From Jimgerdemannia flammicorona (taxonomy: Eukaryota), in the NCBI GenBank assembly GCA_003990765.1, contig RBNJ01000143.1:1-39408 (forward strand): DNA of 39,408 nucleotides, in the 5' to 3' direction. A model generated the notes under the pieces. The model did no database searches and was not told the origin of the DNA. It saw nothing but the letters and a program-made list of their open reading frames with translations. Position 1 is the stretch's first letter, and each line of letters starts with the position of its first letter. Of this stretch, positions 1-29,300 are shown piece by piece. The position numbers were made by a program, and so were the translations under genes.

Positions 1-131
1 GACAATGTCTAAGAAATTAGACAATGTCGGAATCGAGGACTGCTAACTATAATGCTATACTACTTTGGGAATAGGTGCGATCAAGTGTCTATTCCCTATT
101 TCCTTCTTCCAAATCTGGCTGTACCATCACA
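1..131 (-). repeat. Partial 3' LTR of E1
   Basis: Matches 6259-6389 with about 10 differences by hand count; ends ...accatcaca (TGTGATGG on minus strand). Confidence 0.95.
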
Positions 132-143
132 ACTTCCTCCTGA
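132..143 (-). promoter_or_regulatory. Polypurine tract of E1
   Basis: Minus strand AGGAGGAAG-T directly before the 3' LTR TG. Confidence 0.7.
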
Positions 144-168
144 ATGGATGGTCTCATCCCTGAGGCAT

Positions 169-630
169 CTATTCAAACTCCCAGACTTCAACAGTCTGTA
201 TGGTCTTGTACTGTACGATTTGCTGCATGACTGTTTCCCAATGATGTCTTCTCACCTTCTCGAAGTTGGTGGAAGTTACTCCTCTCAGGTGGTCTATCGC
301 TGCTTCATCTTCTTGAAATAACTTATGGATCCTTTTGGCAATAGTGATCTGTGAGTGGGAGAGTTGACACTCGGCGATCCAGTCCTCCTTGGTCTTTACT
401 GGATCCTGATTGAGCACCTGTCCAAGCTTGAAATACTCTTGGAATTCTGCACGATACTGATAAGCTCTAAAGTGCGAGATCCGAGAGAGATGAGTCTACA
501 CAATACTCTGAATATCCTCATAGTATAGCTCTATGGTTGGAGGCTCGGTGGTGTGCCATTGTCTTTTGATGGCTCTTTGGGCAGCACTAGTGATCTTGAG
601 TGCTATCACAGTACTTTTGTTACTGGTCAT
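169..630 (-). pseudogene. E1 ORF3, ~153 aa orphan ORF after integrase (one internal TAG)
   Basis: ATG at 630 is in frame with track ORF 169-417: MTSNKSTVIALKITSAAQRAIKRQWH...EFQEYFKLGQVL...IAKRIHKLFQEDE...WEFE; the internal TAG is CAG in the E2 homolog. Confidence 0.8.
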
Positions 631-1813
631 GATATTTCTTGAGTCAGTTTCGGTAAATGGTGGTGGGGATTATTGTGTCTGAGGGTTTTCGTAGCCAAAA
701 GGTGGTCCCTTTTATATCTTGCACAAGGTAAGGTCCTTCCCACTTGGGCTCCAGTTTTTGTGACCATGAAGCTTCTACCATGTTCCGATACACCAGGACC
801 TTGTCTCCTATCTTGATAATCTCCAAGGGCTTGTGGATCTTTTCCACATTCCTTCGTTGTAGTGTCTGTGCCTTGGTTATGTAATCCTCAGCCTTCTTCC
901 TGATTTGGTGTAGTCTCCGTATCTCTATGTCCACATGTTTCCATACAGCATCTCCATTAGATGATAGGGTTCCTTGAGAACATTCTTCTCCAAACAGCAT
1001 TTCTCGAGAGGTAAAGTGGGTGCTTTGTAATCGGATATCCCGGAGAGCAGATAATGCTATTGGCAGATAGTGATCCCAGTTCTCGTAGTTATCACAGATC
1101 TTGGCGATAACATTCTTGAGGGTCTTGTTGATCCTTTCTACTTGTCCATTTCCTTGAGGGTGATAGGCTGTGGTCCGAATGTGCTGAATCTTATACTTCT
1201 TGTAGAGAACTTCGAAGAACTTGTTCACGAATTCGGTTCCTCTATCTGTAGTTACTTGTGTTGGGGTCTTGAACCGGCAGATGATTTCCTTGTGGAAGAA
1301 ATCGGCGATTGACTGTGCATTGGCTTCCTTGAGAGGTCCTGCTTCTATCCACTTCATAAAAAGGTCTACGATGACAATGATGTATCGGTTGCCAGTCAAA
1401 GTCAAGGGTAGTGGGCTGATTACATCCATTGCAATGTGGGCGAATGGTACTGGTTCTATGTGTGCTGATCCTGGGGCTTGATTTCGTTGGTCTTGTTTCT
1501 GTTTCTGGCATTTGTCGCATGTTTTGACGAATTGTCTGATATCTTCCTCCATCCCTGGCCACCATATTGTTCTTCTTGCCTTGTCGTATATATTTGTTCC
1601 TCCTAGATGGTCAAGTTCATGTACTGATTTCATTGCTTGCTCCTTCTTGTGTTCTGGTATGACTAGTAGTTTTCCTTTCTTCAGTGTTTCTCCATCAGTT
1701 TTGAATTGTTTCCATGTTCTGTTGATAATCGTTTGTGTTCATTCTTCCAGATGTTGGGGCATCTTTTGCTGTCCCAGGTATGTGATGATTCCATAGTAGA
1801 GCTCCTTATTCAT
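620..1813 (-). pseudogene. E1 integrase in its own reading frame (HHCC, DDE core, GPY); two internal TGA
   Basis: HELDH...CDKC, MDVIS/TDRGTEF/GQVER, KWEGPY; ATG at 1813 (MNKELYYGIITYL) overlaps the RT-RH stop; ends YHDQ* at 620. Confidence 0.93.
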
Positions 1814-4800
1814 GATTGATTTGTTGGTTGGAGGTAGTTCGAGGTGTCCGTAAGAGAGCATCTGTATTGGAGTTTATTCTTCCAGGGCGGTGCACGATGG
1901 TTACATCATAGGCTTGTAACTTCATTATCCATCTGGTATAGATTCCCTTGGGTTGTCCGGTTGTCAGTAGCCAGGTGAGAGCTGAGTGGTCCATCTGGAT
2001 AGTGAAGTATCTTCTGGCCAGATAGTAGTGGAACTTTTCCACAGCTCAGATGACTGCAAGGCATTCCAACTTGTAGGACTCATATTCTTTTTCAGCCCCT
2101 TGGGTTCCATGGCTAAGATATGCAATGATATACTCTTTTTTGTCTTCTTTTTGAGCTAGGACTGCTCCTAGTCCCTGTGCACTTGCATCCATCTGAAGGA
2201 TAAATTCTTGGATCCAATTGGGTCATCTGAGGATAGGTACCTAAGTTAGTCTGACCTTGAGTTCGTCAAATGCTTTTTGTTGTCTGCTAGTCCACTGGAA
2301 CTTGGTATCCTTCTTGTTGAGTTCATAGATTGGGCCTGCGATGTTGGAGAATCCTCTAATGAATCTGCGATAGTAGGAGGCAAGTCCCATGAAGGCTTGG
2401 GCTTCTGTGACGGTAGTGGGCCTTGGGTATGCTGCTACCACTTGTATCTTGAGGGGGTCCATATGTATTCCATCTCGATTGATGATATGGCCAAGATAGG
2501 AGATCTCAATTTCCACAAACTTGCACTTTTTGGGTTTGATATAAAGGCCATGTTGTCTTAGTCTCTCCATTATCTGCTGTATGTACTGCAGATGTTCCTC
2601 GGCCATCTTGCTGTAGATGATTACATCATCGACATAGACCATCATCCATCTTCCCATGTCATAGCGGAAGATTTTGTTCATCATTCGCTGAAAGCTTGCT
2701 GGTGCATTGCACATTCCGAATGGCATTCGTAAGTAGATGTAGGTTCCATCTGGGGTGATGAAGGCTGACTTTTCGCTTGCCACTTCTGTGAGTCCGATTT
2801 GGTGGAATCCTGAGTATAAGTCCAAGGTGCTGTAGTACTGTGCTTCATCTCCCAGTATTATAAGAATGTCACTGATGAGCGGCAGTGGTTGGCGATCCTT
2901 CTTGGTGACTGCATTGAGCTTTCTGTAGTCAACACAGAGCCTTGGGGCAAATTCTCCAGGTTTGCTTCCTTTTTTCGGGGCTAGTACAACTGGTGAAGAC
3001 CAGGGGCTGCTGGCTTCTTTGATGATAACAGCTTCTTCCATCTGCTTGATTTCTTCTCTGAGCCATTCTCGGTAGGCTGGCGGGACAGGTCTTGCTTTCT
3101 GATAAATTGGTTCGGTGTCTCCAGTATCTACCTCATGATAGTAGTGTGGGGTCTTTCCCTTGATATCCTTGAAATCCGTGGCAAGGACATCCTCGAATTT
3201 GTGGAGTATTTTCTTGAGTTCCTTCTTAAGTGGGAATTCGTCTCCAATGGTGTAACTGTGCTTGCTCGTGTTTTCCTCCTTCTTGTGCTCAAGTTCAGTG
3301 ATCTTGGTACTGGTGAATACTCCTCTTCCTGTGGATCCGAATCCTTTCTTTCCTCTTTTCGTTTCCTCCAGATTCTTGACTTCTATGATCCTTGGCTGTA
3401 TGATTGGAAAGATCAACATCTGTGCCAATCGGTCCTTCTTCTTGACTGGGAATGGAATTGTAAGATTGTGGTTCCTAGCAATAAGTAGAATTTCTCCCAT
3501 ATAGTCTGAATCAATGACTCCTCCTTCGATTGTAATTTCGCTTCTAGCCAGGCTGCTTCTTGTCTTGAGAATCCTGACATGATCCTTTGGGATGGTCATC
3601 TCCAGTCCAGTTGCGAGTAGGGTGGTTGTCTGGGGTTTGAGTACAGTTTCTTCTACTGTAGTGATGTCCATTCTGGCTGCGTTTTCTGACTTATATTCTG
3701 GCAAGACTGTGTCAGGGTGGATCTTTCGAATCTTGACCTTGATTTCTTCTTCATCATCACTGTCCTCCAGGAGGGCTGGTGGTTCATCATCTTCCTCTTC
3801 TTCTTCTTCTGTAGTCTGTTTTTCGAGAGCTTTCTGGCTTCTTTCCTGGTAGATCTTCCTGGTTCTGATGGTGCACTGGTAGCAATCATTGACATGTTCC
3901 ATACAGTACATCTTGATTCCATGAGGACAGACTCCTTGTGGGGCATAGCCTTCTGCGATCTTCTTGCACCATTCTTCTTCACTCATCCATCCGACTTTCT
4001 TCTTCTTTGCGGTAGTCACTATATAAGCTTCCTCTTGCTCGCTCTCTTCTTTCTCCATATCAGGCAGGACTCCTTTGTTGACATTGATGGGAATTCATAT
4101 CTTCTGTCCCTGGTAGGTGATTTGCATTTTCTGAGCATTGAGATCGATTACCGCTTTGGCTTTGTGAAGCCATTGATTGCTGATGAGGATGTCATAGTTG
4201 GTGGCATTGGTTACGATTACATCTACTGGGATTGTTACTCCTCCGATCTTGATGGGAACATCTCGGATCTTTCCCAGAGGTGTGGCTCTTGTGCCATCAG
4301 CTGTGACGAATACTAGCTTGGTTGCTTCTTCCACATCTCAACCTAGGTGGTCTGCTGCCTTCTTACTGAGGAGACATCCTCCTGCTCCTGTGTCAATGAT
4401 GGCTTCAAAGACTCGATCCTCAATTTGGCATGTTGCATAAGCAGAGGTTTTGCGATTGTCCTCACTTTCTTCTCCTGAGTCTTCTTGAACATTATTGGCC
4501 TCGGTTATCTTCCATCCTTATTCCTTGGTTGTTTCGGCAAGTCCAAACCTCATTTGCTGTCTGAATGTTGGGATTTCTGCAAGCTGACCAAAGGTTGCAT
4601 TGACCTTTTATTGACTGAGATCCTTGAAGATATCATACTTGAAGGTCTTGGTCTTGCGAAGCTTCTTTTCTTTTTCTCCTTCACTGGCTGGAGTGGTTCC
4701 TCGGATGATATCTTGAACTGCTTGCTCCAGCTCGATATCCTGGTCCATCTCTTTGGCTTAACTTTCTGTGGCAGTTTCTATCCGCTTTTCCACTGGATTC

Positions 4801-5792
4801 TTCTTGGGTCTTCCTGATAGTCTCTTGTAGGGTTCTTTGCAAACATCCTTCTTGGTGGTCTGAGCAGGATAGGCCTCCCATTCCTCTTCATCGGATTCTC
4901 TGATTTCTTCAAAGGTGATTGTATTGGCCTGCTCCTTATTTTGTGTGGTATTGCTTGGTTGAGCCTTATATTTGGTTTCACTCATACATTCATAGGAGTA
5001 GTAGCCTTCTTCTCTACAGCTGTAGCAGGTACCTTTCTTCTTGTCTGAGGTGGTGGCAAACTTCTAAACAGGATGGCAATCTCTTTCTCGGATTTCCTTT
5101 ACCACATCTCCCAGGTGGGCAGTCATTTCAGCAAACCTTTTGGCGAGTTCCTCCATAGGGTTACTGTTCTTTTGCTGCTCTGTAGCTTTTGGCTGAGGTG
5201 TGTTTCGATTGATCATTGTGGTGGGGATCACACTGGTTGCCTTGGGTGCCTTGATTCTGACTCCTGTAACTCTTTCCATTGTATGGTCTTGTGGGTGTCT
5301 GGCTATCCAGTATCGCTGAGCATAGGTGACCTTTTGTGGCAGATCCAGAATCACTGGTGATGAGCAGATGTCTATGGCTATTTCTGGATGGACTCCTTTC
5401 ATGAAGATTGCTTTGGCTACTTGATCTCGGATAGCAGCAGCATAATCTGCAAGAATTATCTGATATCGAATTCTGGTATAGAATGTGTTTGGATCCTCAC
5501 TCATTCCTTGGCACATTGTGTTAAGCTGATCCTTCAGGGCTTGCTTGATCTCGTCTGTGTAATATGTGTTTCAGAGCCAGGTCTTCTGTGCTGTCAGTAT
5601 GGCATCGGCATCATTTTCTGCATGGGTTATGGCTGTAAATGCTGCTCTGGCAGGGCCTTGTAGGCTGAAGGGCATGAGGGCTACTTGCTGTGCTGCTGTC
5701 AGAGTTCTTACAGCAGCATACTGCTCGAAATTGTCAATGAAGGTGATGATTGATTCATCTGAGGTATATCCATGGAATACTGGTAGTCTCAT
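1806..5792 (-). pseudogene. gag-pol: E1 gag-pol polyprotein (Gag, Zn knuckle, protease, CPHG module, dUTPase, RT, RNase H), one frame with nonsense stops
   Basis: Track ORFs starting at 6107/5516/4985/4334/4058/2042 share one frame; degenerate knuckle CYSC..G..S.EC ~4987-5028, IIDTGAG ~4380-4400, RLCVDYRKLN, MPFG, YVDD, RNase H DAS and DH motifs. Confidence 0.95.
3327..3743 (-). other. dut: dUTPase domain in E1 pol (between PR and RT)
   Basis: All five trimeric dUTPase motifs: AA(R/G)MDI, RSSLA, GVIDSDYMGE, RLAQ, RGKKGFGSTG. Confidence 0.95.
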
Positions 5793-5892
5793 ATCTATCT
5801 TGTCTGGGTATTGGGGCTCAGTTTGTATGGTTGTTCGGATAGTAGTGGTTGTTCGTTGTTTAGCTTGAAAGTGAGGGATTCGTCTTGAATCA

Positions 5893-5910
5893 CCAGCCAA
5901 TGAGCACCAA
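5893..5910 (-). promoter_or_regulatory. Primer-binding site of E1
   Basis: TGGTGCTCATTGGCTGG starts 3 nt after the 5' LTR CA; TGG complements tRNA CCA; mutated equivalent follows the E4 LTR. Confidence 0.75.
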
Positions 5911-5912
5911 GT

Positions 5913-6389
5913 TGTAACATAGCGGACGCTTACTCTTGAAAGTACGTCAGATTTCTGTATCTTGAAAACTTGACCATTCTGACTCTCGCAGAGTCTCTTG
6001 AAGTTGTAGGAGAGGGTGGGTGAGTTCGAAGTATATCTGCCTGCAGGCTTACTAGTTCCTTTGCTATCTCTTTGCTTTTGAACTATTTCGATCTGAGGTT
6101 TATTCACTTGAAGACACTGGGTTATTTATACAAGTTTGCTAGCTATGAGAGGGTGGCTAAGTAATAAATGAGTTATTTGGACTTTATTGAAACATTCAGA
6201 CAATGTCTAAATGCTATATTAAATCGGAGTATCCGATTTGGATAATGTCTAAAATTTAGACAATGTCTAAGGATTTAGACAATGTCGAAATCGAGAACTG
6301 CTAACTATAAGGCTATACTACTTTGGGACTGGGTGCAATCAAGTGTCTATTCCCTATTTCCTTCTTCCGAATTTGGCTGTACCATCACA
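5913..6389 (-). repeat. 5' LTR of E1 (477 bp)
   Basis: TG...CA ends (tgtaacat...catcaca); minus-strand TATAAATA at 6123-6130; homologous to 6458-6953 and 18880-19335. Confidence 0.95.
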
Positions 6390-6457
6390 ATGTATAAATA
6401 TTTATAATAAATTTATATAATTTTAATATTAGTATATTAGATAAATATAATTAATAT

Positions 6458-6953
6458 TGTAACATAGTGGATACATACTGATAGAAGTGCAGCAGATTTC
6501 TTTATCTTGAATACTTGATCTTCTTTAACTTCTCAGAGTTCTCAGATATAGGAGTAGATGAGTTTGAAGTATCTTTACCTATAGACTTATTAGTTTCTTA
6601 TCACTTTACTTAAACTATTTCAATCTGAGATTTATTCACTCTAAATATTAGGAATATTTATACAAGTTAACTAGCTATATGGTTGCTAAGTTAAGACTTC
6701 TTTTTCTATAAGTTATTTCATATAGTTGAGAGATTTATATATTTGTAAAATCTGTATAGATGAGAGATCAATATATCTGAGAGATTTATATAGCTATACT
6801 TTTTATATAATTATATAGATTATACAACTGAGAGATTGAGTGACTGCTAAACCATAATGCTATATTATATCAAAAATCAGATTCAGATACATACTACATA
6901 TAATCAAATATCTATTTTATAATTATTATTTCTAATTTAGATCAACTATTATA
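6458..6953 (-). repeat. 3' LTR of E2
   Basis: Starts tgtaacatagtgg like the E1 LTR; ends actattata (mutated accatcaca), followed by a mutated PPT. Confidence 0.85.
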
Positions 6954-8346
6954 ACTTTCTTCTAAATAAATAATTTTACTCCTAAATTATCTTATTCAAA
7001 CTCCTATGCTTCAATCAATTGTATATTCTTATACTATATAATCTACTCAATTATATTCTTTCAATAGTGTCTTTTTATCTATTAGAAATCTTTTGAGACT
7101 ATATCTTGAAAATAGACTAGAGCTTACTCATTATCTTTAAATGAGTTATAAACCTACTTAGCTATAGTAATATAAGTATAGGATATCTAGCTCTCTACAA
7201 TCTATTCTTCTTTAGTTATATTCTTTTTATTTAAGCAATTTTCTCAACTTAAAATACTCTTGAAACTCAGTATAATATTAAAATTTATAATAAGTAAGTC
7301 TGTACAATACTTTGAATACTATTAAACAATTTCTCTATAGCTAGCAGCTCAGTAGAATACTATTGTCTTTCTAAAACTCACTGAGCAATACTTGTGATCT
7401 TGAGAGTTAGAGTAATATTTCATAGTTAGCTATAGTACTTCTTGAGTTAGTTTTAATAGATAGTAGTGTAGATAATTATATCTAATTGTTTTTATAGCCA
7501 AAAGGTAGTTTCTTTTACATTTTACACATTATAAGATCCTTTCTATTTAGGCTTCAGTTTTTATAACTTTAAAGCTTTTACTATATTTTAATATATTAAA
7601 ACTTTATCTCTTATCTTGATAATCTCTAGAGACTTATATATCTTCTCTATATTATTCTAGTATAATACCTATATCTTGATTATATAAGCTTTAGTCTTCT
7701 TTCTTATTTAATATAGTCTCTATATCTCAGTATCTATATATTTTCATACTATATCTTTATTAGATAATAGAGTTTCTTTATAACTTCTTCTCTGAATAAT
7801 AATTCTCAAGAGATAAAATATGTACTTTGTGATCATATATTCTGAAGAGTAGATAATATTATTGACAGATAGTAGTTCTAATGTTTATAGTTATTATAGA
7901 TCTTGGTAATAATATTTTTAAGTATCTTATTGATCTTTTCAGTCTATCTATTTCTTTATAGATAATAAGCTATAGTTCAAATATACTAAATCTTGTACTT
8001 CTTGTATAGAATCTCAAAGAGCTGGTTCATGAATTCTCTTTCTCTATCTGTTATTACTTGCTTTGGAATCTTGAATTAGCAGATGATTTTTCTATAGAAG
8101 AAATTAGTAATTAACTATATATTGACTTCTTTGAGAAGTCCTACTTCTATCTATTTCATAATGAGATCTATAATAACAATAATATGTCAATATTAAGAGT
8201 AGTGGATCAATTATATTTGCAATATGGACAAATAGTACTAATTCTATATCTACTGATACTAGTATCTAGTTTTGCTAATCTTGCTTCTGTTTCTGGTATT
8301 TATTACAGATCTTGACAAATTATCTGATATCTTTCTCTATTCTAGA

Positions 8347-8711
8347 TAGTGCTTCTAATAAATTGAATCAAAGATCTAATTCAATTTGATTTAAATTGAA
8401 TCAAAGGTCTAATTTAATTTGAGATTTAATTCAAACTCTATTTTTTAAAATGCAATAACTCAACAAATATATATATTTAAATTTAATGATCTTTAACTTG
8501 TTAGATTTCTCTATATAAGAAGAATCTAATAAGCTAAAGGTTGATAAATTTAGACATATTTTCATTAAGTTATTATATTTTGAAAAATAGGGGTTGAATT
8601 GAACCCTCAATTTAATTTAAATTCAATTTAATTCAAACTTGATTCAAATTGAAAAATCCTCAATATAATTTAATTCAAATGATCTTCAATTTAATTTGTT
8701 TGGAAGTACTA
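8347..8711. mobile_element. 365-bp hAT-like MITE inserted in E2 integrase
   Basis: 8-bp TSD attctaga/attccaga; imperfect TIRs tagtgcttctaataaattgaat / atttaatttgtttggaagtacta; internal palindrome; absent from E1. Confidence 0.85.
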
Positions 8712-11700
8712 ATTCCAGACTACTATATTGCTCTTCTTACTTTATTATAGGTATTTATCTTTTAGATAGCCAAATATATATACTAATTTCATTATATGTT
8801 TCTTCTTTAGTATTTCTTAATTAATTTTAAATTATTTTCAAATTCTGTTGATAATTATTTATATTCATTCTTCTAGGTATTGGGGCATCCTTTACTATCT
8901 TAGATAAGTGGTAATTCTATAGTAGAGTTTCTTATTTATTTTTATTTTACTAGTTGTAAGTTCTTTAGAATATTTGTAAGAGTATATCTGCATTAACATT
9001 ACTTCTTTCTAAGTAGTACATAATGGTTGTATTATATACTTATAGTTTTATAATCTATCTAATAAATATTCCTTTTAGTTAGCTTATGATCAATAACTAA
9101 GTAAGAGCTAAATGATTATTTAGGATAGTAAGTATCTTCTAGTAAGATAGTATATAGTGTAACTTTCTACAGCCTAAATGACTACGAGATACTCTAGTCT
9201 ATAGAATTTATATATATTCTCTTTCTTCTCTACAGATTCCTCAGTTGAGATATGCTATATTTGACTTTATTTAAAGAACTACTTCTAGTCTAATTGAGCT
9301 TATATCTATCTATAGGATGAACTTTTAAGATCAGTTAGATCTTCTCAAGATGGGTGCTTAGATCAGACAGATATTGAGATGTTTAAATACTTATTATTAT
9401 CTACCAATTAATTGGAACTTAGTATCTTTCTATAGATAAAATCTGTAATATTGAAGAATTCTTTAATAAATCTTCTATAATAGGTGATAAGTCCTATAAA
9501 GACTTAAGCTTCAGTAGCTATAGTAGGTCTTGAGTAGGCTTCAACTGCTTGAATCTTGATAGGGTCTGTATGTATTCTATTCTAATTAATAATATAACTA
9601 AGATAAGAGATCTCAATTTCTACAGAATTTGAATTTCTTAGACTTAATATATAGGCTATACTTCCTTAGCTTCTCTATTATCTACTGGATATACTACTGA
9701 TACTCTTCTGGTATCTTCCTATAAATGATTATATCATCTATATAAACTATCAGCTATCTTTCTATATTATAGTAGAAGATTTTATTCATTATTTACTAAA
9801 AGGATATAAGTTCTATCTAAGATAATAAAGGCTGACTTTTCACTTACTGCTTCTGTGAGACTAATTTGTAGAGTCCTGAATATAAATCTGAGGTACTATA
9901 ATACTATACTTTGTTATAAAGATGTTGCTAATGAGTAGTAGTAGTTAGTAATTCTTTTTGATATCTAGGTTGAGCTTTCTATAATTGGTATAAGATTTTG
10001 GAGTAAATTCTCCAGGTTTGCTATCTTCTTTAGAGCTAATATAACTAGTAAAGTCCAAGAACTACTGACTTCTTTAATAATATCAACTTCTTTCATTTGT
10101 TTGATTTCTTCTCTAAACTATTTATAGTAGACTAGTAGGATGGGTCTTATCTTCTGATAGATTAGTTTAGTATCTTTTCTTTGATATTCTTAAAGTCTAT
10201 AGCAAGAATATCCTTGAGTATCTTCTTAAGTTTCTTCCAAAATAGGAATTTATTTTCTATAGTATAGCTGTATTTATTTATAGTTTTCTTCTTCTTGTGA
10301 TCCAGTTCAGTAATCTTGATACTAGTGAATACTTCTCTTTCAGTGGATCCAAATTCTTTCATTTCTCTTTCTGTTTTCTCTAACTTCTTGACTTCTATAA
10401 TCTTTAGCTAAAGGACTGGGAAGATTAATATTTATATTAGTCAGTCCTTCTTAATTGAAAATGAAATCATAGAATTATAGTTCTTAGCAATGAGTAGTAT
10501 TTCTCCAATATAATCTAAATTGATAACTTCTCTTTCAATAGTAATTTTACTTTTAGCTAGACTACTTCTTATCTTAAGAATTCTAATATAGTTCTTCAGA
10601 ATAGTTATTTTTAGACCAGTTGTAAGTAGAGTGGTTGTCTGGGGCTCAAGTATAGTTTCTTCTACTGTAGCAATATCTATTCTTACTATATTCTCAAACT
10701 TATATTCTGATAGTACTATATCAGAGTAGATTTTTTAATCTTGATCTTGATCTTTTCTTCATTATTACTATCTTCTAGGAGGGCAGATGGTTCATCATTC
10801 TCTTTCTCCTTCATTTCTTCTTTATTCTCTCTTATCTATTTCTCATAGACCTTCTATCTTCTTTAATAGTAGATCTCCTTAATTCTACTGGTATTTAGTA
10901 GTAATCATTGATATACTCTATATAGTATATTCTGATTCTATAGAGGCAGACTCCTTATAGTATATATTCTTCTATGATCTTCTATACCAGTTCTCTTCTC
11001 TGATCTATCTGACTTTCTTCTTCTTCTTTTGAGTATTTATCATATAGGTCTCTTCTTGCTCACTGTCTCCTTTCTCTAGCATCTTCTGAGCATTTATATT
11101 AATTATAGCCTTAGTCTTGTGGAGTCACTGGTTGTTGATAAGAATATCATAGTTGGTAGCATTAGTTATAATTACATTTACTAGGATAATTACTCCTCCA
11201 AACTTGATGGAAATATTTTGAATTTTTCCCAGAGATGTGGCTCTTATACTATCTGCTATAATGAATACTAATTTAGTTGCTTCTTCAACCTCCAAACCTA
11301 GGCAGTCTACTGCTTTCTTACTAAGGAGATATGTATTCTTCTACTTCTGTATCAATAATGGTTTTGAAAACTCTATCTTCAATTTGATATATTATATAGG
11401 CAGATGTTTTGTGATTATCTTCACTCTCTTCTCCAGAGTCTTCTTAAACATTATTGGTCTCAGTTATCTTCCAATATTAGTTCTTAGCTATTTCAGTAAG
11501 TCTGAATTTTATTTATTATCTAAATATGGAGATTTCTATCAGTTGTCCAAAGGTTGCATTAATATTTTATTAACTGAGATTCTTGAAGATATCATACTTG
11601 AAGGTCTTGCTTTTGTAAAAATTCTTCTTCTTTTCTTCTTCACTAACTAGGACTAGAGTGGTTTCTCAGATAATATCTTGAATTGTCTGCTCAAGCTCTA

Positions 11701-12092
11701 TATCTTGATCTATTTCTTTAGCTTGACTTTCTGTAGCAGTCTCCATCTATCTCTCTACTGGGTTCTTCTTAAGTCTTCTTAGTAGTCTCTTATAGAGTTC
11801 TTTACAGATATCTTTTTTAATAGTTTGAGTAAGATAAACATCCTATTCTTTTTCATCAAACTCTCTAATTTCTTTAAAGATAATAATGTTGGTCTGTTTT
11901 TATTTTGGATAATATTGCTTAGCTGGGTCTTATACTTAGTTTTACTTATATATTTATAAGAGTAGTGATCTTTCTTTTTACAGCTATAGTAGATATCACA
12001 CTTCTTATCTGAGGTGATAGCAAACTTCTGAACTGGGCAATAATCTCTCTCTCTGATTTCTTTTACTATATCTCCTAGATAGATAGTTATTT

Positions 12093-12552
12093 TGTAACAG
12101 TTCTAGTTTCTTTAAGAGAAAGTGGCTAAATCTGGAAGTTCTAGTTGATCTAAAGTAGCTCAAAAAGAGATACTTAAAGGTTCAAGTATTCTTGAAGGAT
12201 TTCTGGGAGAAAATATTCTGAGCTTTATTCAGATAGAGAACAAGAATATTTATACATTATCTGAAAGAAAGATCTGGAAGGATCTTGGAAAGAAAGAGAA
12301 ATGCCAAGAAATAGGTTCTTGACAAAGCTGACTAATACTATTCTACAATATTCTGAAAGGTTTTATAACTAGCTGAGACAAGATACTTAGTGCCAAGGAA
12401 AGATAAGAATGTTCTAGTAGTATCTGGGCACTGAGAGAAGGTTTTTAAGCAAGTAGAATGTTCAAGAAATGACAAGAAAAAACTGACTAAAAGATGCAAA
12501 AAATGTACTAAGACTAAATATGACTGTAAAATTATTACATTCCTCTCTCCTT
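12093..12552 (-). mobile_element. LTR (12093-12539) plus PPT of an unrelated LTR element that truncates E2
   Basis: tgtaac...attaca ends, followed by ttcctctctcctt (AAGGAGAGAGGAA on minus strand); starts exactly where E2 homology stops. Confidence 0.75.
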
Positions 12553-17974: not shown

Positions 17975-18879
17975 ACAAATTTAGTCCTTTTTCAACCAAC
18001 ATTAATTGAGAACTAGAAATGAGTTCTGGAATAGAGGTGCTGATAATTTTTCGATTTCTTATAATATCTCAGAACCTCTTCTCAGATTCTCTACCTTTTA
18101 CTATAAGACTATGTTGTTATCATAGAATCTACAACTTGCTAGTAGAATATATCTCAGCTTACTCTATCTGTTTATAAGATAGATATTGAAAGAATAGATA
18201 CCCCAATTCTGGAAATATACTTTTATAGCTAAATCTCAATTCTCAAATAGTAGTTGTAAATATATTGACTCTTATATCAATAATGTTAAATCTCTCAAAG
18301 CAGTTGACAATAAACATATCTGTTTTCTTATCTATTATTTTATATCTTACAAACTAATTTATATATCAAATAAAAGATTTGACTCTTCTGGAATATTTTG
18401 AAAAAAATAGATAAACTTATTCTATTCTATAGCATTCTATTTCATAAGCTGTTTGAGCTACTGAACTTTGGAGATTGTGGATAATAAATCAGTTATATTT
18501 TTTAAAGCTATGAAATTTATAATAAGTATATAGAATCTATATTTATAGTATATCATCATTATCTAAAAATATATTCTCAATATAGAATATAAGTATCTGA
18601 TATATAATAATTTAGAGAGATCATTTATTATTATGAGAAAAATATTCTCAGATATATATATATATATTGTGATAAGTAAATAATATAATATAGTTAGACA
18701 ATATATATACTCAGTATAGTATAGTTATCTATACCTAGTTATCCACATATATCTCTACTTATAATTAGTCAAAATACTAAATCAGATTTATTGATCTATA
18801 TTCTAAAAACATACTTATGTTTATGAAATATATCTGTGCTCACTAGATATATATATTTATACTTAGTAGATATACCTAG
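17975..18879. other. AT/TpA-rich degenerate relic, probably an old TE (unclassified)
   Basis: Composition like E2, almost no CpG, no intact ORF. Confidence 0.45.
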
Positions 18880-19638
18880 TGTGATGGTATAGCCAAATTA
18901 GGAAGAAGGAAATAGGGAATAGACACTTGATTGCACCCATTCCCAAAGTAGTATAGCTTTATAGTTAGCAGTCACTGATTTTGACATTGTCTAAATTTCT
19001 AGACATTGTCCAAATTGAATACCCTGATTTAGTATAGCATTTCAACATTGTCTAAATTTCTAAACATTGTCTAAATGACTCATAACTTAGCTGCATAACT
19101 CAGTAGCCATCTCATAGCTAGCAAACTTGTATAAATAACCCAGTATCTTTGAGTGAATAAACCTCAGATTGAAAGTGTTAGAAAAAGAACAAGTATACTG
19201 ATAAAAGGACTTTCAGGATTACCTTTTTAAACATATTTGGCCTCAAGGAACTACTGACTCTGGGAGTCAAAAAGACAAGAATTCAAGATAAAGAAATTTG
19301 ACATACTTACCCACCTTAGTGTCCACTACATTATAACTTAGTACCCATTGGCTGGTGATTCAAGATGAATCCCTCACTTTCAAGCTGAACAACAAACAAC
19401 TGCAACAAGAACCCACATAATACAATCAGACAAAATAGATATGAGACTACCCGTATTCCATGGATATACCTCCGATGAATCAATCATCACCTTCATTGAC
19501 GATTTCGAGCAGTATGCTGCTGTAAGGATCTTAAGTGTAGCACAACAAGTAGCTCTACTCTCTGTAAGCCTCCGAGGTCCAGTAAGAACTGCATTTACTG
19601 CAGCCAATGTACAAGCAGCCAATGATCCAGAGATTATC
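18880..19638 (+). mobile_element. E4: 5' fragment of an E1-family element (5' LTR 18880-19335, PBS, gag start 19441-19638)
   Basis: Reverse-complement match to the E1 LTR and leader; MRLPVFHGYTSDESIITFIDDFEQYAAVR nearly identical to E1 gag; ends at LINE A. Confidence 0.93.
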
Positions 19639-21751: not shown

Positions 21752-21784
21752 TAGGGATTGATTGCGAACAAACCGTATTTCATT

Positions 21785-24700
21785 ATGAATAGTACAACCA
21801 ACATTTTTTCTTTGAACGTGAATGGGCTAAGGGGTGCAGTTAGACGCAGGAACATTTTTACTTGGTTGAAGGGATTGGAGGCCGATCTCTTCCTCTTGCA
21901 GGATGTCAGGTGCGAGGATGATTCTGATAGGATGGAATGGACTAAGGAATGGGGTGGCATGGCGATTTGGAACAGCAAGGTTGGGATTCTGGTTTGGAAA
22001 GGCAGAGGGGAGATACAGAATGTAAGGAGCTGGGGGGAGAGACTGGTCTGGGGTGAGTGGATTCGTGCAGGGTGGGAGCCGGTTACAGTTGGCTCCTGTT
22101 ACTGCCCTACTGTGTGGAGGGAGCATGTGGATTGGGTGAAAGGGCTCCTGGAGAGTGGGGTCCTTGCTGAAGCTGGGTTGGACATACTTGGAGGTGATTT
22201 CAATATGGTGCAGGATGTACAGCTGGATAGAACCGATGGAGGCCGGGGTGCTGAGAGCAGGAGTGGGGGGCTGGCAGTGTGGGAGGAGGTCAAAAGGCTA
22301 GGAGCGCTGGTGGATGCTGGTAGGGTATGCTGGGGGGACAGGAGGGTATATACACATTGGGCTGGAGGTCTGGGGACAAGGATTGACTGGATTCTGTCAG
22401 CCGACTGTTGGGGCCATGACATTTGGAAGGAGCTAGAGGTAGAATGGTGTCCGTAGTCAGATCACTGGGGCCTTTTGGGACAGGGGTGTTTTGGGGGTAG
22501 TGGTGATGGACCTGGACATTAGCGCCTGAACTCCTCCTTGTTGGATGACAAGTCCCAGTAGGAGGAGTGGGCAAATGACATTCAGATTAAGGTGACGAAT
22601 TGGTGGCAGGAAGGGGCCACCATTGGGGTTCGGTGGAGAAGGATGAAGGAGATGGCCAGGATGTACTGGAGCAAGGCTGGCAGGGTGGCTGGGAGGCAGC
22701 GAAGGCAGAAGGTATATTGGGCTTCTACTAGATTGGCTAGGCTTCTGGAGGAGTGGGCGAGTCTGGCAGTAGTGGAGGGAGAAGAAGATTGGAGAATAAC
22801 AAGGGTGAAGATGGAGGTTGGGAAACTATAACAGGTGCTGTGGGAAGAGGAAGAGGCAAGGGTGCAAGGCCTGGCAGCACGGCTTCGTTGGCAGGGACTG
22901 GAGGAAGGGGAGAGGCCTTCCAAATTTCTTACGAGGATGCTTTGAGCAAGACAGGTACAGCAGCAGTGGGAAGGGGTACTTTACTCAGATAGTAGACTAG
23001 TGCACGGTGTACAGGATATCCTTGGAACACTGAAGGTGCGATGGAGTGGATTGTGGAGTGAGGAGGAGGGTGGGGCGGACACTACAGCCATTGAATGAAC
23101 ATTAGAAGATTGGCACACTCCACGAGCTGAGGGATTAGGCAACCTGACGATGCCTGTAGAGGAAGATGAGATCCACCAGGTTCTTGCCGCGACAGCCTTG
23201 GGTATGGTGCCTGGGGAGGATGGTCTCCCCTGGGACTTCTGGAAGCGAATGGTTGGAGTCCTGGGCATTTTTGGAGAGTTGATGGCACTGTGTGACTCCA
23301 TATTGCAGTCAGAGAGATGGGTGGGGGAGCAGGATCTTGGGCTGGTGATGCTGCTTTATAAGAACAAAGGAAGGCGAGAGGATTGGAAGACTGGTGGCCG
23401 ATAATGTTGCTAGATATGGACAGAAAGTTAGTGACTAAGGTGGTGGTCGCAAGGCTGCAGAAGGTGGCCCAGCAAATTGTGGGAGTTGAGCAGAGGGGCT
23501 TCATAGGGGGTCAGCTTATTTGAGATGGCATGGCCTGGGTGCACGGCATTATTGAGGGTGCTCGAGCCTGTGGACTGGATGGGCGTCTTGTCTTCCTAGA
23601 CCAGGAGAAGGCTTATGACCGGGTGTGGTGAGTCTGGCTGGCGAAAGTGTTGGATAGGATTGGAGTTTCAGTCCAATTTCGGGTGGTGATGGTCAGCCTA
23701 CTGGAAAGGAGTAGGGCTGTGCTCGTGTGTAATGGGCATAGAGGGGTAGCTTTCTCTCTGGGTAGGGGGTTGCCCCAGGGGGACCCACTGTCTCCCATTT
23801 TGTATGCACTTTCCTTGGAGCCTCTACTGGACCGAATTCAGTAGAGGATTGTGGGGCTTTCTATCTATGGAATTGGCTGGAAAGTTGGAGCCTTTGCAGA
23901 CGACATGGTGGTTGGGTTGGGAGTAACTGCAGATATTGAGGAGCTCAAGGAGATGGTGGAGGGGTATGAGGAGAACTCTGGGGCGAAGCTGAATTGGCAC
24001 AAGTGTGAAACGATGGTTTTAGGCAATGGACTGGTAGGTGGAGAGGTTATTGGAACAATTGTCCCCACTAGAGAAGTGGTGTGGTACTTGGGCATATTTT
24101 TGTCAGTCTATGGGTCAGTTCTGCCCAGGCTGTGGTGGGAGCAGAGGATTGGAATTTGGGAGGAGGATCTGCGGGGTTGGGGGGGAAGACACTTCTCTCT
24201 GGCAGGAAGGATCTCGATTTTGAATATATACTGGCTGCCGAAATTGTGGTATTTGGCTTATCATCTGGACTTCCCAGCCTAGGTGGTGAAGTGATCGGTA
24301 AAGGTAGCCAAGGGATGGATTTGGGCTGGCAGAAGGAGTCAGATTGGTTGGGAGACGCTGTTCCTACCGGTGGTGAGAGGTGGTCTTAGGCTGGTGGACT
24401 TCCCCAAAAGACTGCACTGCTTGAGGGCATGGTGGCTTAGAAGGGCAGTGGAGTTGTGTGGAGGGGGTTGGGTTCCCCTACTGCAGAAGGTATGGGAGAG
24501 GCGGACATCGCCAAGAGGCTTGACTGGAGATCTTCTTTCATTAGTTGGGCTTCAGAACACTGGGCAACTGCGATATAAAGGCTTCTGGTGGGGGATAGCC
24601 AAGGGGGCGCACCGCATTGGTATTCGCTGGTAAGGAGATGAGGGGGAGAGGGCTTGGGGCCTGGCGATGTGGAGATGGGATGGCATTCTGCTGGGAGGCA

Positions 24701-26383: not shown

Positions 26384-29300
26384 ATGCCAATTCAACTAAG
26401 CTGGTCTTAGTTTCTTGAACTTCCTGTAATACGGAAATCCTGAATATCCAGAACTAGTCCGAAAAAAGGACTTTGGTTGAGATGTCAACCCGATCATGAA
26501 ATCAATAAGCATAAAGGACGTACTCCATATGAAATTGATCTTGACCATAAAAAAATGGTCTTCCAGAATATCCAGAACTTCCAGAAAACCCTTCCAGAAC
26601 TACGTAATGGTTACCATAAAAAGCAACCCTCTTACAACTTGGTAGCAGTGGTTTACAATCCAATTCCGCTTCAAGATGCTTCCTCACCCTGCTACAAACC
26701 CTTCTGAGAATTCTTACAAGTTGGTATAAAGTCCAACATTCGAACTGGAATTTATCCTGAACCATCTGACAATCTGGAGAGAATTGAACCTGACGTACAA
26801 GGACAATTTGACCTCTACACCTGCAACAAGTGGGACAAACTTCATTCTAAGAAAGAAGTATACCAGCAAATAGGCAAAACCCTATTCACCGAACTCCTTG
26901 CACTACACCCAGCAAGTCAAGATGAAGAGAAGCCTTCTTTACTCTTCTCAACAAGAGTTTTGTCAGCTCCACAAATCCGAGTGACCTAGGACAACCAGCA
27001 GCAGTCTTTCTAGCCTTAGTTCCTCACGAAGCACAAGTGTCTGTAGCCAAGTGGCTCAACTCTACCAACTTTCACCATACCAGGACCAAGACCACATTAT
27101 ACTACCGATTCCAGAACAGCAAGGCCTGCCATATTCTTAAAGAAGAAGCAAGAGAAACCCTTCATCAACTACCTGATCCTGAACCCGAAGCAGGCCCTGC
27201 TACAGCCCTACCTGTATCAGAAACTAACACTGAACCTGAACTTGACTTTGAATTAAGTCCATCTGAAATCAGATATACAACTGATTCCGTCTACTTTGAT
27301 GCTGAGCAAACCCAATTACACAGGGACCAAACCAAAGAGGAGGAGGAGTATCTCACTGAATTCGATCCCAGATACACCACCGAAGGAGACACACATCCAT
27401 CAGGACAGAATATACCTACACAGCAACAAACAGTTATCTATCAAGCCCTTACTCCAGATCCACAACTACTACTCCAGCAACTTACACAGACCCAAAGAAC
27501 TCCATCACACTCTGCACCAGTACCTCAAGTAGTACCAGTAACACCATTACCAGCAGTCCAACCGCCTCCAGTAAACAACATGGTGAACCAACAGATTCTT
27601 GATCTCACAGCCCAAGTAGCTACAATGGCAGCAACTATTACTGCCTTAGCTAAACAGACCTGACCTACAAAAAATCTGAGTCTACCTACCTTCAATGGTA
27701 CTGCACAAGAAGTCCAAAGCTTTATTAGTGTAGTTGACACCAACTTCAAAGCCAATCAATGGACCAATGAGCGAGTTGCTGACCATGTTCTGATAAACAA
27801 TCAAGACCACACTCTGGAACAACTCTTTGCTACCACTACAGCCTATGTCCACCAAGTTGTTACATTCTCCCAAGGACCTGCCAAAGAATGGTGGCGAACC
27901 CTTCCTGAAAAACCCCTCACATGGGATACCTGACCTGCAGTAGTTGCTCAGAATGCAGCAAACAATGCCCCAGGATATGGAGCCCATCCTGCAGCCCCTG
28001 GACTCAAACAACTCATGATCACTCAATACTGCAGCGAAACCATGATTGCTGAGTCTCAAGTAAAACTCCACAGCCTCAAATTTGATATACATGACAAAGA
28101 AGAATTCGAAACCTTCTGTACAAAACTTGAGTCACTCCTGAACACTGTTGGCCTAGGATATATTGCCAACAATGAAGCATGAAATGGTACAAGAGCAGAC
28201 CATTTATTTGATGCCCTGCCTGAATGGTTTACCAGAAATATCTGAGAACAAGGCTGCCCAGTTGGTGGTAACTACCAACAATGATGCCTGGTAAGAATCA
28301 AGACTATGGTTAAGCAAATCCTAACAGCTGGACCAATTCTGCCCCGAAGACAATTTAACAATAATGAAAAGACTTGGACCAAGAAAGAAGAACCCAAACA
28401 TAAAGCATCCCGAGCTCCCTCCACATCTATCTCTTGGATGCCAAGAAATCATGAACCTACCCAGCCAAGTATCTTCAAGAAACTTACTGAAGGTGAAAGG
28501 AATGAACTTCGAAGAAGTGGAGCATGCTTCTATTGCTGAAAGACAGGACACATGGCCAGTGCCTGCCCTAACCAAAAACCCTGAACAGCAACAAGAGCAA
28601 CTGTTACCACTCTGCACCACCTCAACAACCTGACCACTAGAACACGGAACTTTGTCAAGTTAAGACAAACTGCTAAGGCCCCAATCAAAGGAAGTCAGAA
28701 AGCAGCTGGATATGACCTATATGCAGCCGAAGAAGCTACAGTTTCCAACTGAGAAGTCAAACAAGTCTATACAGGAATCAGCATCCAAATCCCTGAAGGA
28801 CATATTGGAAGAATATGCTGTCGCAGTAGCCTAGCATTGAAAGGACTCTCAGTAGAAGGAGGAGTCATTGATGAGGATTACACAGGCGAAATTATTGTCC
28901 TCATCCGAAATCACAGTTGGACACCCTTCAAGATCCCTATTGGTTTCTGCATCGCCCAGATCCTATTTGAAAAAATTGAGTCAACCCTGACAGTCAAGGA
29001 AGTCCCTGAACTACTGCCCACCATCTGAGGATCCAAAGGATTTGGCTCATCCAATAAGGCCCCAGCCCAACCTACCATGAACAAAGAAGAACAATTCTAC
29101 AAGAAGATCAAAGATGGATATGTACCAAGTGGCTGATGTCCTCATGGCATTAGAATATACTCTTCCTGAATGATTGATGATTGCTTCTCTTGTGTCAATG
29201 AACTGGCTCAAAGAAGAACCAACAGAAGGAAAGCTCCTACAACCGAAATCACTACCATTGGATCAGACAAACTACTCACACTTAAGGCTTTTGTCAACCA

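Follow-up and report, generated by a model that had tools for sequence, protein, structure and literature searches.

An integrase gene that overlaps or abuts the end of the upstream ORF in a lineage of fungal-type Ty3/gypsy retrotransposons

In LTR retrotransposons and retroviruses, integrase (IN) is taught to be cleaved from Pol, which guarantees its packaging with Gag-Pol. Some other reverse-transcribing agents, namely foamy viruses, hepadnaviruses and caulimoviruses, produce an enzyme separately from their capsid protein and have to recruit it in trans, and in caulimoviruses abutting ORFs are translated off one RNA. However, in these groups either the whole of Pol is separate or integrase is absent, whereas in the lineage described here, represented by element E1, integrase alone is detached and RT–RNase H (RH) stays fused to Gag. 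Closer in kind are the dUTPase-bearing fungal Ty3/gypsy elements of Phanerochaete chrysosporium and PosPlaTy3-5 of Postia placenta, which, according to the excerpted text of PMC2864245, carry the dUTPase between protease (PR) and RT and share with E1 the order gag-PR-dUTPase-RT-RH-IN, the failure to find a chromodomain and, in some cases, an extra ORF of unknown function. Unlike E1, these elements, which are likened to it by description only, consist of one fused Gag-Pol ORF or of two ORFs (PMC2864245, excerpt), and that excerpt makes no mention of a separate integrase cistron. No description of an LTR element with such a cistron was found in the literature searched; the tabulated structures of the PMC2864245 elements may be relevant to novelty.

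A stop and a start codon within 20 nt of each other, as UAAUG or AUGA, following a long ORF form the signature of viral termination-reinitiation (PMC10275272, excerpt), which extends to two fungal viruses, CHV1 and HvV190S (excerpts of PMC10275272 and PMC2699510). The junction forms of these two, AUGA in HvV190S and UAAUG in CHV1 as given in the excerpts, recur in the E1 lineage, likewise after a long upstream ORF and in lineage hosts that are probably soil fungi. Nevertheless, HvV190S and CHV1 are RNA viruses in which the downstream gene encodes the RdRp or ORF B, whereas the upstream ORF of the E1 lineage spans 1300–1650 codons and most of its junctions have no predicted structure. HvV190S requires an upstream pseudoknot (PMC10275272, excerpt); two relatives of E1 (L007 and L009) have a hairpin 3–6 nt before UAAUG. 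In caliciviruses and influenza B segment 7, where reinitiation depends on TURBS, the stop and start also lie within 20 nt and in differing frames, as at the E1 junction, and the downstream output is 3–20 % of the upstream protein (PMC10275272, excerpt); a similar output in the E1 lineage would mean a low, fixed dose of integrase. However, TURBS are defined by pairing to 18S rRNA, while the E1 lineage is likened to these viruses by junction spacing and frame. The only retrotransposon example in the excerpted text of the reinitiation review (PMC10275272) is SART1, a Bombyx non-LTR element with UAAUG between ORF1 and ORF2, a pentanucleotide also present in L007, L009 and L021. SART1 belongs to another element class, and its split separates the Gag-like protein from the enzymes, whereas that of the E1 lineage falls inside Pol.

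The DNA analysed (the window) is a 39,408-nucleotide stretch of Jimgerdemannia flammicorona contig RBNJ01000143.1, in which E1, a decayed fungal-type Ty3/gypsy LTR retrotransposon, occupies positions 1–6420 of the minus strand, where all of its features lie. Its coding region is flanked by LTRs, recognized as a direct repeat (1–132 and 6259–6390, 92 % identical): the 3' LTR (1..131) starts with TGTGATGG at ~131 and is clipped by the window start, and the part of the 5' LTR that pairs with it is found at 6259..6390. The purine-rich stretch AGGAGGAAG (133..141), read from the sequence, adjoins the 3' LTR and is assigned as the polypurine tract by position only. ORF1 (1806..5792, 1328 codons from its first ATG, in a frame open from 6125) was defined by Pfam and tblastn and encodes gag, PR (~4433–4182, Asp_protease_2, 3e-10), dUTPase (~3704–3327, PF00692, 1.5e-24), RT (~2978–2481, RVT_1, 2e-33) and RH (~2294–1908, RT_RNaseH, 4.1e-30). 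It contains 10 internal stops and no frameshift, and a single tblastn segment spans 1397 residues. ORF2 (620..1813, 397 codons) encodes integrase (Integrase_H2C2, 4.2e-17; rve, 4.2e-13), with the HHCC zinc domain at ~1660–1493, the catalytic core at ~1447–1157 and a C-terminus of GPY/F type that stops 3 residues past an ...LKKYH motif. Two TGA codons interrupt it (first bases 1741 and 646), of which the former is TGG in other copies (the contigs of four sequencing runs, place 1739, and L003). The order PR-RT-RNase H-IN, as in Ty3/gypsy, is repeated in L002 and L005, where the dUTPase also scores highly (3.2e-32 and 1.3e-31, respectively); both carry CCHC-PR-dUTPase-RT-RH by Pfam, while the CCHC zinc knuckle is without a Pfam call in E1, the motif there reading C-x2-C-x4-Y-x4-C. 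In contrast to chromoviruses, no chromodomain was among the Pfam matches of IN or ORF3.

At the RH/IN junction (J1; 1806..1813, ATGAATAA), ORF1 closes with CAT GAA TAA (TAA 1808–1806) and integrase opens in the +1 frame at the embedded ATG (1813–1811, ATG AAT AAG), so that the start codon overlaps the stop. At the IN/ORF3 junction (J2; 620..630, ATGACCAGTAA), integrase closes with CAT GAC CAG TAA (TAA 622–620) and ORF3 opens, again in +1, at an ATG (630–628) situated 8 nt before that stop. ORF3 (169..630, 153 codons) has one internal stop (TAG, first base 498) and ends with TAG at 171–169, 28 nt ahead of the polypurine tract and 3' LTR. Both overlaps thus agree base for base with the preliminary description, which had also regarded a random decay frameshift as unlikely. 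E1 is a dead copy inactivated by point mutations, with 13 stop codons inside its ORFs (10 + 2 + 1) and yet no frameshift within any of them (1328 + 397 + 153 codons); the only changes of frame in ~5.6 kb are hence these two, and they are not products of decay, a point settled by the relatives. Both fall exactly on domain borders and with an ATG.

The window holds two further copies. E2 (~6440–12100, minus strand) is 5'-truncated, belongs to the family of E1 and shows RIP-like hypermutation: 1030 of its 1602 substitutions relative to E1 are C>T and G>A, and its identity to E1 rises from 69 % to 89 % once these are forgiven. The E1–E2 alignment bears out what had been claimed for this copy, namely an equal RH-to-stop spacing (in both copies 19 codons separate the RH Asp codon and the TAA, which in E2 is at 8934–8932), ATA in place of the integrase ATG (8939–8937, within J1 at 8932–8939) and an equivalent IN/ORF3 overlap (7426–7433), in which ATA (7433–7431) replaces the ORF3 ATG and the IN-frame TAA is at 7428–7426. 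No indel separates the copies between E1 positions 2004 and 1681, but ~40 indels lie outside the junction region and a 1-nt deletion follows J2 at E1 position 614; E2 is thus a weak second witness for the E1 junctions. The third copy, E3 (18848..19631, plus strand), retains only an LTR and the start of gag (blastn, 74 % over 830 nt; tblastn to ORF1 residues 3–135) and includes no junction.

Relatives were recovered as metagenome contigs with mechanically called ORFs, and integrase was found as a separate ORF in E1 and 11 of them, in contrast to its usual release from the Pol polyprotein in Ty3/gypsy elements. Ten metagenome loci cover both RH and IN (L002–L009, L011 and L018), which with E1 and L012, where only 42 nt of upstream sequence are present, gives 12 elements. 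Measured from the first base of the stop codon of ORF1, the integrase ATG of E1 and of all ten of these loci lies between -8 and +5 nt. The J1 sequence of E1 is identical in L003 and reads CATGAATAG in L004, these three sharing the form ATGaaTAA/TAG, while ATGA is found in L002, L011, L012 and L018, TAATG in L007 and L009, TGAtcATG in L008, ATGgatcTAG in L005 and ATGaacacTGA in L006. At the RNA level, the natural forms across the lineage include AUGA, UAAUGG and AUGAAUAA. The frame of integrase relative to ORF1 also varies (+1 in four elements, -1 in eight), and only the proximity of stop and start is kept. When 880 contigs of four public sequencing runs were compared with the element, indels were detected at three places in 2269 nt, none of them at J1 or J2, and in one variant among these contigs the linker differs while CATGAATAA is unchanged. 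A C-rich, G-poor tract before the AUG was considered as a common signal and rejected, being present in E1, L003, L005, L006 and L011 and missing from L002, L007, L009 and L012.

The preliminary description had named a continuous RH-IN frame in the least-mutated copies, or an unconserved overlap ATG, as observations that would speak against the arrangement. Neither was observed. L002, the least-mutated relative, has three intact ORFs without internal stops (at least 1577 open codons in ORF1, 418 in IN and 230 in ORF3), and its IN occupies another frame than its RH, the two meeting at ATGA; ORF1 of L005 comprises 1623 codons. The ATG is conserved among the relatives: among the best 120 of 374 matches to integrase-sized proteins, 96 start exactly at the Met of E1 (MN/MD-x-E/D-L-Y...), and the remaining 24 comprise five with this Met behind an upstream extension, two alignment-offset starts at that place and 17 N-truncated sequences. 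A search across all lengths returned five full-length matches of at least 40 % identity (394–448 aa, matched from residue 1–2), and the best fused or longer protein among the 120 listed is 39 % identical to E1 integrase. The split arrangement extends to integrases only 40–49 % identical to that of E1, the DDE and HHCC residues are invariant across 18 integrases, and the dN/dS of integrase between E1 and L003 is 0.10, indicating purifying selection. A quick maximum-likelihood tree groups 11 of the 12 tight-junction elements in one clade (SH-aLRT 99). Searches for further relatives yielded four loci in viral contigs, all at or below 32 %, and 16 loci in genome contigs, none close. On these data, the separation of integrase from Pol is the ancestral and selected state of the whole lineage and not a decay frameshift.

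ORF3 is similarly conserved. The E1 copy shares 66 % identity with its counterpart in L003, which is intact and 153 aa long, homologues occur in nine further loci, and constraint is evident from pN of 0.21 against pS of 0.86. The product is a conserved protein that is all-helical in the AlphaFold model (pLDDT 81). No Pfam match was obtained for E1 or its relatives, a protein collection yielded only 10 close relatives, structural neighbours in the Atlas were uninformative, Foldseek returned no PDB match at E <= 0.001, and the best Z of the wide VIA-align search (6.3) was inside the noise stated for helical models. A suspected likeness to the C-terminal part of P0278, a Cetraspora protein, found no support (hhalign probability 0.1 %). 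In all 11 elements ORF3 is in +1 relative to IN, and its first ATG precedes the stop codon of IN by 8–404 nt, a distance that is within 30 nt in just three of the 11. Tight coupling at J2 is therefore not conserved, and the ATG/TAA overlap between IN and ORF3, presented earlier as a general feature, turned out to be confined to E1 and its nearest kin.

On balance, the junction sequences point to termination-reinitiation as the likeliest means by which integrase is made. The working architecture of the lineage comprises three cistrons on the full-length RNA: ORF1, encoding gag-protease-dUTPase-RT-RNase H; integrase, with a conserved AUG overlapping or adjoining the stop codon of ORF1; and the small helical ORF3, with its AUG within the last conserved codons of integrase and in the +1 frame. 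Ribosomes finishing ORF1 would remain bound to the message and resume translation at the neighbouring AUG. Free integrase would then be produced at a constant, low level relative to Gag-PR-RT-RH, and this integrase would need to reach the particle or cDNA in trans instead of within Gag-Pol. The spacing associated with termination-reinitiation, with stop and AUG within ~20 nt and out of frame, is present at J1 in 12/12 elements. The earlier suggestion that both integrase and ORF3 arise by reinitiation is favoured in its first part, as reinitiation fits integrase better than a +1 frameshift does (the frame flips between +1 and -1 while the proximity stays), but not in its second, since the loose J2, with distances of 8–404 nt and three of 11 within 30 nt, makes reinitiation a weak general explanation for ORF3. 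We tentatively suggest that this LTR clade may have detached integrase from Gag-Pol and produce it by termination-reinitiation after an ORF of 1300–1650 codons, through junctions, AUGA and UAAUG among them, of a kind known until now from RNA viruses and a single LINE, with the dose set by restart efficiency, recruitment in trans to the particle or cDNA, and the lineage-specific ORF3 as a possible adaptor.

Several observations count against coupled reinitiation. Abutting ORFs may be found in compact genomes from economy alone. Shared RNA structure was not detected at J1, where mean z was -0.24 for the 80 nt upstream and -0.61 downstream versus 0.16 +/- 1.0 in 29 control windows, and RNAalifold predicted 0 pairs on four J1 sequences. 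Of 11 junctions folded singly, just two, those of L007 and L009, form a strong hairpin immediately upstream of UAAUG, and the remaining nine resemble shuffles, so that no common cis element emerged at J1 from single folds, shuffles or RNAalifold; reinitiation after 1300–1650 codons, however, normally needs an upstream cis element (PMC10275272, excerpt). In addition, in a related clade (L020, L024 and L026) integrase begins 95–374 nt past the RH stop, a spacer that coupling is unable to explain.

These points also favour the alternative that integrase, and probably ORF3 too, is expressed from a subgenomic RNA of its own, made by splicing or from an internal promoter, or through internal ribosome entry, the abutment of the ORFs reflecting a compact genome. 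A conserved AUG suits any initiation mechanism, and an ORF3 AUG as far as 404 nt before the IN stop demands more than tight coupling. Because J2 is not tightly coupled, at least one cistron probably uses another route, which could serve integrase too, and the ORF3s of LTR elements typically derive from spliced messages (PMC5408684, excerpt). On the other hand, all 12 junctions hold stop and start within 8 nt, although they have been remodelled into six or more forms and occur in either frame relation, which mere compaction does not predict. Furthermore, no AG occurs in the 45 nt before the AUG of E1 and L006, and therefore no acceptor lies close by, and the contigs, which are DNA contigs only, exhibit no splice joint. 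A separate message or internal entry is thus considered rather unlikely as the source of integrase.

Programmed frameshifting at the ORF1 stop (+1 in E1, GAA-U-AAG) would instead generate an RT-RH-IN fusion that the protease cleaves as in an ordinary gypsy element. Stop codons are known sites of +1 shifting, antizyme and RF2 being examples, and +1 shifts are also employed by Ty1 and Ty3; in E1, L003 and L004, a +1 step over the first base of the stop would join the frames unbroken. Nevertheless, eight of the 12 relatives would need a -1 shift, a slippery heptamer is found at none of the junctions, and the frame relation is not fixed. The IN frame is open for just 2 codons before the ATG in L018 and for 9–11 codons in L012, L004 and L002, and a shift site would need no Met, yet Met is conserved here and absent from fused relatives, in which only 1/29 has it at the residue aligned to the integrase start. 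Such a frameshift therefore appears highly improbable. A last reading, which takes the changes of frame for plain decay or for defects passed down in a sublineage that is non-autonomous or dead and was copied in trans, is scarcely credible: E1, E2 and E3 are all dead, and E2, which has the junctions of E1, may descend with it from one master, but L002 is an intact three-ORF element, the arrangement spans the divergent integrases noted above, selection on IN and ORF3 is strong, and the 5.6 kb of E1 contain no further indel.

With RT-RH fused to Gag and integrase as its own cistron, the lineage raises the question of how integrase reaches reverse-transcribed DNA and offers a natural system in which to study it. 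If the restart mechanism holds true, the lineage would provide the first example among LTR elements and also one in which reinitiation follows an ORF of exceptional length in a cellular translation system of fungal type, and the many natural junction variants allow side-by-side comparison. Pipelines that annotate on the expectation of a single pol ORF will label such copies as frameshifted or defective. Metagenome pipelines name the free integrases of this lineage bacterial transposases.

On the minus strand of E1, an LTR element of gypsy type that runs from ~6420 down to the window start, where its 3' LTR is cut (repeat 6259-6390 versus bases 1-132, 92 % match), the long frame ORF1 closes CAT GAA TAA, with the TAA at 1808-1806, and the integrase (IN) frame opens at the ATG at 1813-1811, one base forward of it. 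The integrase closes CAT GAC CAG TAA (TAA at 622-620), and ORF3 opens at the ATG at 630-628, again one base forward, and extends for 153 codons to a TAG at 171-169, with the polypurine tract and the LTR shortly beyond it. ORF1 has Pfam matches to aspartyl protease, dUTPase (1.5e-24), RVT_1 (2e-33) and RNase H (RH; 4.1e-30), and ORF2 to the zinc domain of integrases (4.2e-17) and to rve (4.2e-13), while ORF3 has no Pfam match. The overlaps with +1 frames at the RH/IN and IN/ORF3 junctions, as reported in the preliminary description, are borne out base by base, and that observation on E1 is confirmed. The copy is dead: ORF1, ORF2 and ORF3 are interrupted by 10, 2 and 1 in-frame stops, respectively. 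Nevertheless, every ORF forms a single unbroken tblastn segment, so the sole two frame changes in ~5.6 kb sit exactly on the two borders.

The 5'-truncated, hypermutated copy E2 (~6440-12100), which directly adjoins E1, was said to share this geometry, and it does: TAA codons lie at 8934-8932 (RH/IN) and 7428-7426 (IN/ORF3), ATA replaces both E1 ATGs, and no indel separates the copies across E1 positions 2004-1681. E2 is a weak witness owing to its mutation load and the ~40 indels against E1 away from this stretch. Its substitutions are predominantly C>T or G>A (1030/1602), with 60 % of CpA, 65 % of CpG, 39 % of CpC and 28 % of CpT cytosines changed, and its G+C content is 23-30 % versus 44-46 % in the adjoining E1. 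By its base changes, this pattern is RIP-like and points to a fungal host. E1 also shows A or T at sites reading G or C in other copies, which is decay of the same kind to a lesser degree. Relative to E1, E2 carries a 373-nt insertion (8340-8715) of AT-rich imperfect repeats with aattaaattgaa-like units, which splits the zinc-finger region of its integrase.

Further copies were sought in public runs. Words of E1 turned up in metagenomes from soil and in sequencing runs of a single organism, none of them recorded as RNA. Contigs of four runs (666, 27, 61 and 126) aligned to positions 132-2400 showed indels at only three places (852, 860 and 1729) and none at the RH/IN or IN/ORF3 junction. The in-frame TGA of E1 at 1741 is TGG in the other copies, and in one contig the RH-IN linker differs with CATGAATAA unchanged.

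When metagenome contigs were scanned with 18 aligned integrases, 441 of 485 candidates were confirmed and 80 loci obtained, at each of which the frame of the RH C-terminus was compared with that of the IN N-terminus. At 10 of these (L002-L009, L011 and L018) the split is tight, the IN ATG lying between -8 and +5 nt relative to the stop codon of the RH ORF, counted from its first base; one further locus (L012) has ATGA and only 42 nt of upstream sequence. Three loci (L020, L024 and L026) have a stop-to-ATG gap of 95-374 nt, 34 have RH and IN joined in a single open frame, as does the other gypsy element of the window at ~35.9-37.7 kb, seven are broken in various irregular ways, and 25, not counting L012, have an upstream side too short to score. 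At least six kinds of tight junction occur: ATGA (L002, L011, L012 and L018), TAATG (L007 and L009), TGAtcATG (L008), ATGgatcTAG (L005), ATGaacacTGA (L006) and ATGaaTAA or ATGaaTAG (E1, L003 and L004), with IN in the +1 frame relative to ORF1 in four elements and in the -1 frame in eight. That the split is not a decay frameshift is substantiated by L002, which is intact throughout (an ORF1 open over at least 1577 codons, an IN of 418 codons and an ORF3 of 230) and retains the overlap ATG with RH and IN in different frames. CCHC, protease, dUTPase, reverse transcriptase and RH were all found in its ORF1, as in that of L005 (1623 codons).

The integrase start itself is old. Among proteins of similar length, E1 integrase had 374 matches, of which the 120 best were examined; these are mostly 408-434 aa, with 40-49 % identity to E1. 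Exactly at the E1 Met (M-N/D-x-E/D-L-Y-Y-G-L-V-x-Y-L) start 96 of the 120, and two more start there with an offset alignment, while five place this Met behind an upstream extension and 17 are N-truncated; a start Met common to proteins of such low identity shows its age. In an all-length search, the five full-length matches with at least 40 % identity were 394-448 aa and aligned from residue 1 or 2, whereas the long polyproteins listed had 27-38 % identity and mostly aligned only from query residue ~38-50. Among the 120 longer proteins listed as matches to the intact L002 integrase, none exceeded 39 %, the best being a Cetraspora pellucida gene model. Many of these free eukaryotic retrotransposon integrases are labelled by metagenome pipelines as 'transposase InsO family protein' or 'IS30 family transposase', so their contigs are being taken as bacterial. 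The DDE triad and zinc ligands are invariant in all 18 aligned integrases, and dN/dS between the E1 and L003 integrases is 0.10.

A quick maximum-likelihood tree built from 50 integrases places 11 of the 12 tight-junction rows in one clade (SH-aLRT 99), with L018 outside it, adjoining the fused L027. Comparison of these sequences shows that the three ORFs are the genuine, ancestral arrangement of the clade and are under selection. In the fused relatives, the residue aligned to the start Met is Met in only 1 of 29, namely L027 (~984-1120), the sister of the split L018, where RH and IN share one frame with the Met retained; the fusion may be secondary, or the locus may represent an intermediate. 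The sister group L020/L024/L026 also has IN as a separate ORF, beginning 95-374 nt past the RH stop, with a repeated motif of ~35 nt in the spacers of L024 and L026; coupling cannot account for IN there. In L021 (469-731) and L022 (166-451), what precedes IN is not RNase H but a short ORF (86-92 codons), ending TAATG and 4 nt before the ATG, respectively, so that the gene order upstream of IN differs from the RH-IN order.

The reinitiation proposed earlier is the best-supported mechanism for integrase, and we consider it slightly favoured: after ORF1 termination, translation would restart at the conserved initiator AUG. That AUG, a stop kept within 8 nt of it despite repeated remodelling, and indifference to frame together form the signature of coupled termination-reinitiation. 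This process yields the downstream protein at 3-20 % of the upstream one (PMC10275272), with CHV1 and HvV190S as fungus-infecting examples (PMC10275272, PMC2699510) and SART1 as the retrotransposon example given (PMC10275272). In L007 (1799-1833) and L009 (419-450), UAAUG is preceded at a distance of 3-6 nt by a 13-bp hairpin, its sequences almost entirely different but its pairing kept (z of -1.7 and -4.5 over 83 nt, and of -3.0 and -4.5 for the 80 nt upstream, respectively), which is reminiscent of the structure that HvV190S requires upstream for stop-restart. The other tight junctions fold like shuffled sequence. Since no common cis element was found at the tight junctions, production of integrase by internal entry, or from an RNA of its own (spliced or subgenomic), stays a serious rival. 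Programmed frameshifting at RH/IN fits poorly, as the shift needed would be +1 or -1 depending on the element, a shared slippery site is absent among the tight junctions, and in L018 the IN frame is open for only two codons ahead of the ATG.

As a general explanation for ORF3, reinitiation is weak. Homologous ORF3s follow IN in E1, L002, L003, L005-L009, L011 and L012, and L018 has an ORF at the same place; the frame is +1 of IN in 11/11 elements. The first ATG mostly falls within the last conserved IN codons (...R-L-K-K-Y-H), with the IN stop 8 nt past it in E1 and up to 404 nt in L007, and lies within 30 nt of that stop in only 3/11. The neat ATG/TAA overlap is thus a peculiarity of E1 and E2, and provides no argument for coupling in general at ORF3. 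Between E1 and L003, ORF3 shows pN 0.21 and pS 0.86, the latter saturated. The AlphaFold model of the L003 protein is all-helical (pLDDT 81, pTM 0.77), with no convincing structural match; the ORF3s belong to no Pfam family, and the protein collection searched held nothing beyond close relatives.

In PMC2864245 and PMC5408684, a dUTPase between protease and reverse transcriptase is described for basidiomycete gypsy elements and bdelloid rotifer elements, and fungal elements are given one or two ORFs, sometimes with an additional one. Full-text searches of the open literature returned no description of an LTR element whose IN forms its own cistron, linked through a stop-start overlap, and the arrangement can be called new only as far as these searches reach.

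The window has 43 % G+C and is rich in repeats; among seven of its ORFs scanned for domains, no host gene was recognised. A third fragment, E3 (18848-19631, plus strand), comprises an LTR and the start of gag. Another gypsy family (35941-37743, plus strand), with ~30 % identity to E1 Pol and IN, carries RH and IN in one continuous frame and so provides a control, within the window, for the ordinary fused state. Non-LTR retrotransposon fragments at 21755-22453 (plus) and 31108-32668 (minus) carry an Exo_endo_phos endonuclease domain (2e-08) and two RVT_1 pieces (1.1e-13 and 4.3e-08). A dUTPase-like stretch at 28681-29193 (plus strand) shares 38 % identity with the E1 dUTPase across 128 residues, and after it comes a short match to the part of E1 that precedes dUTPase; the stretch is probably left over from a further element with a dUTPase.
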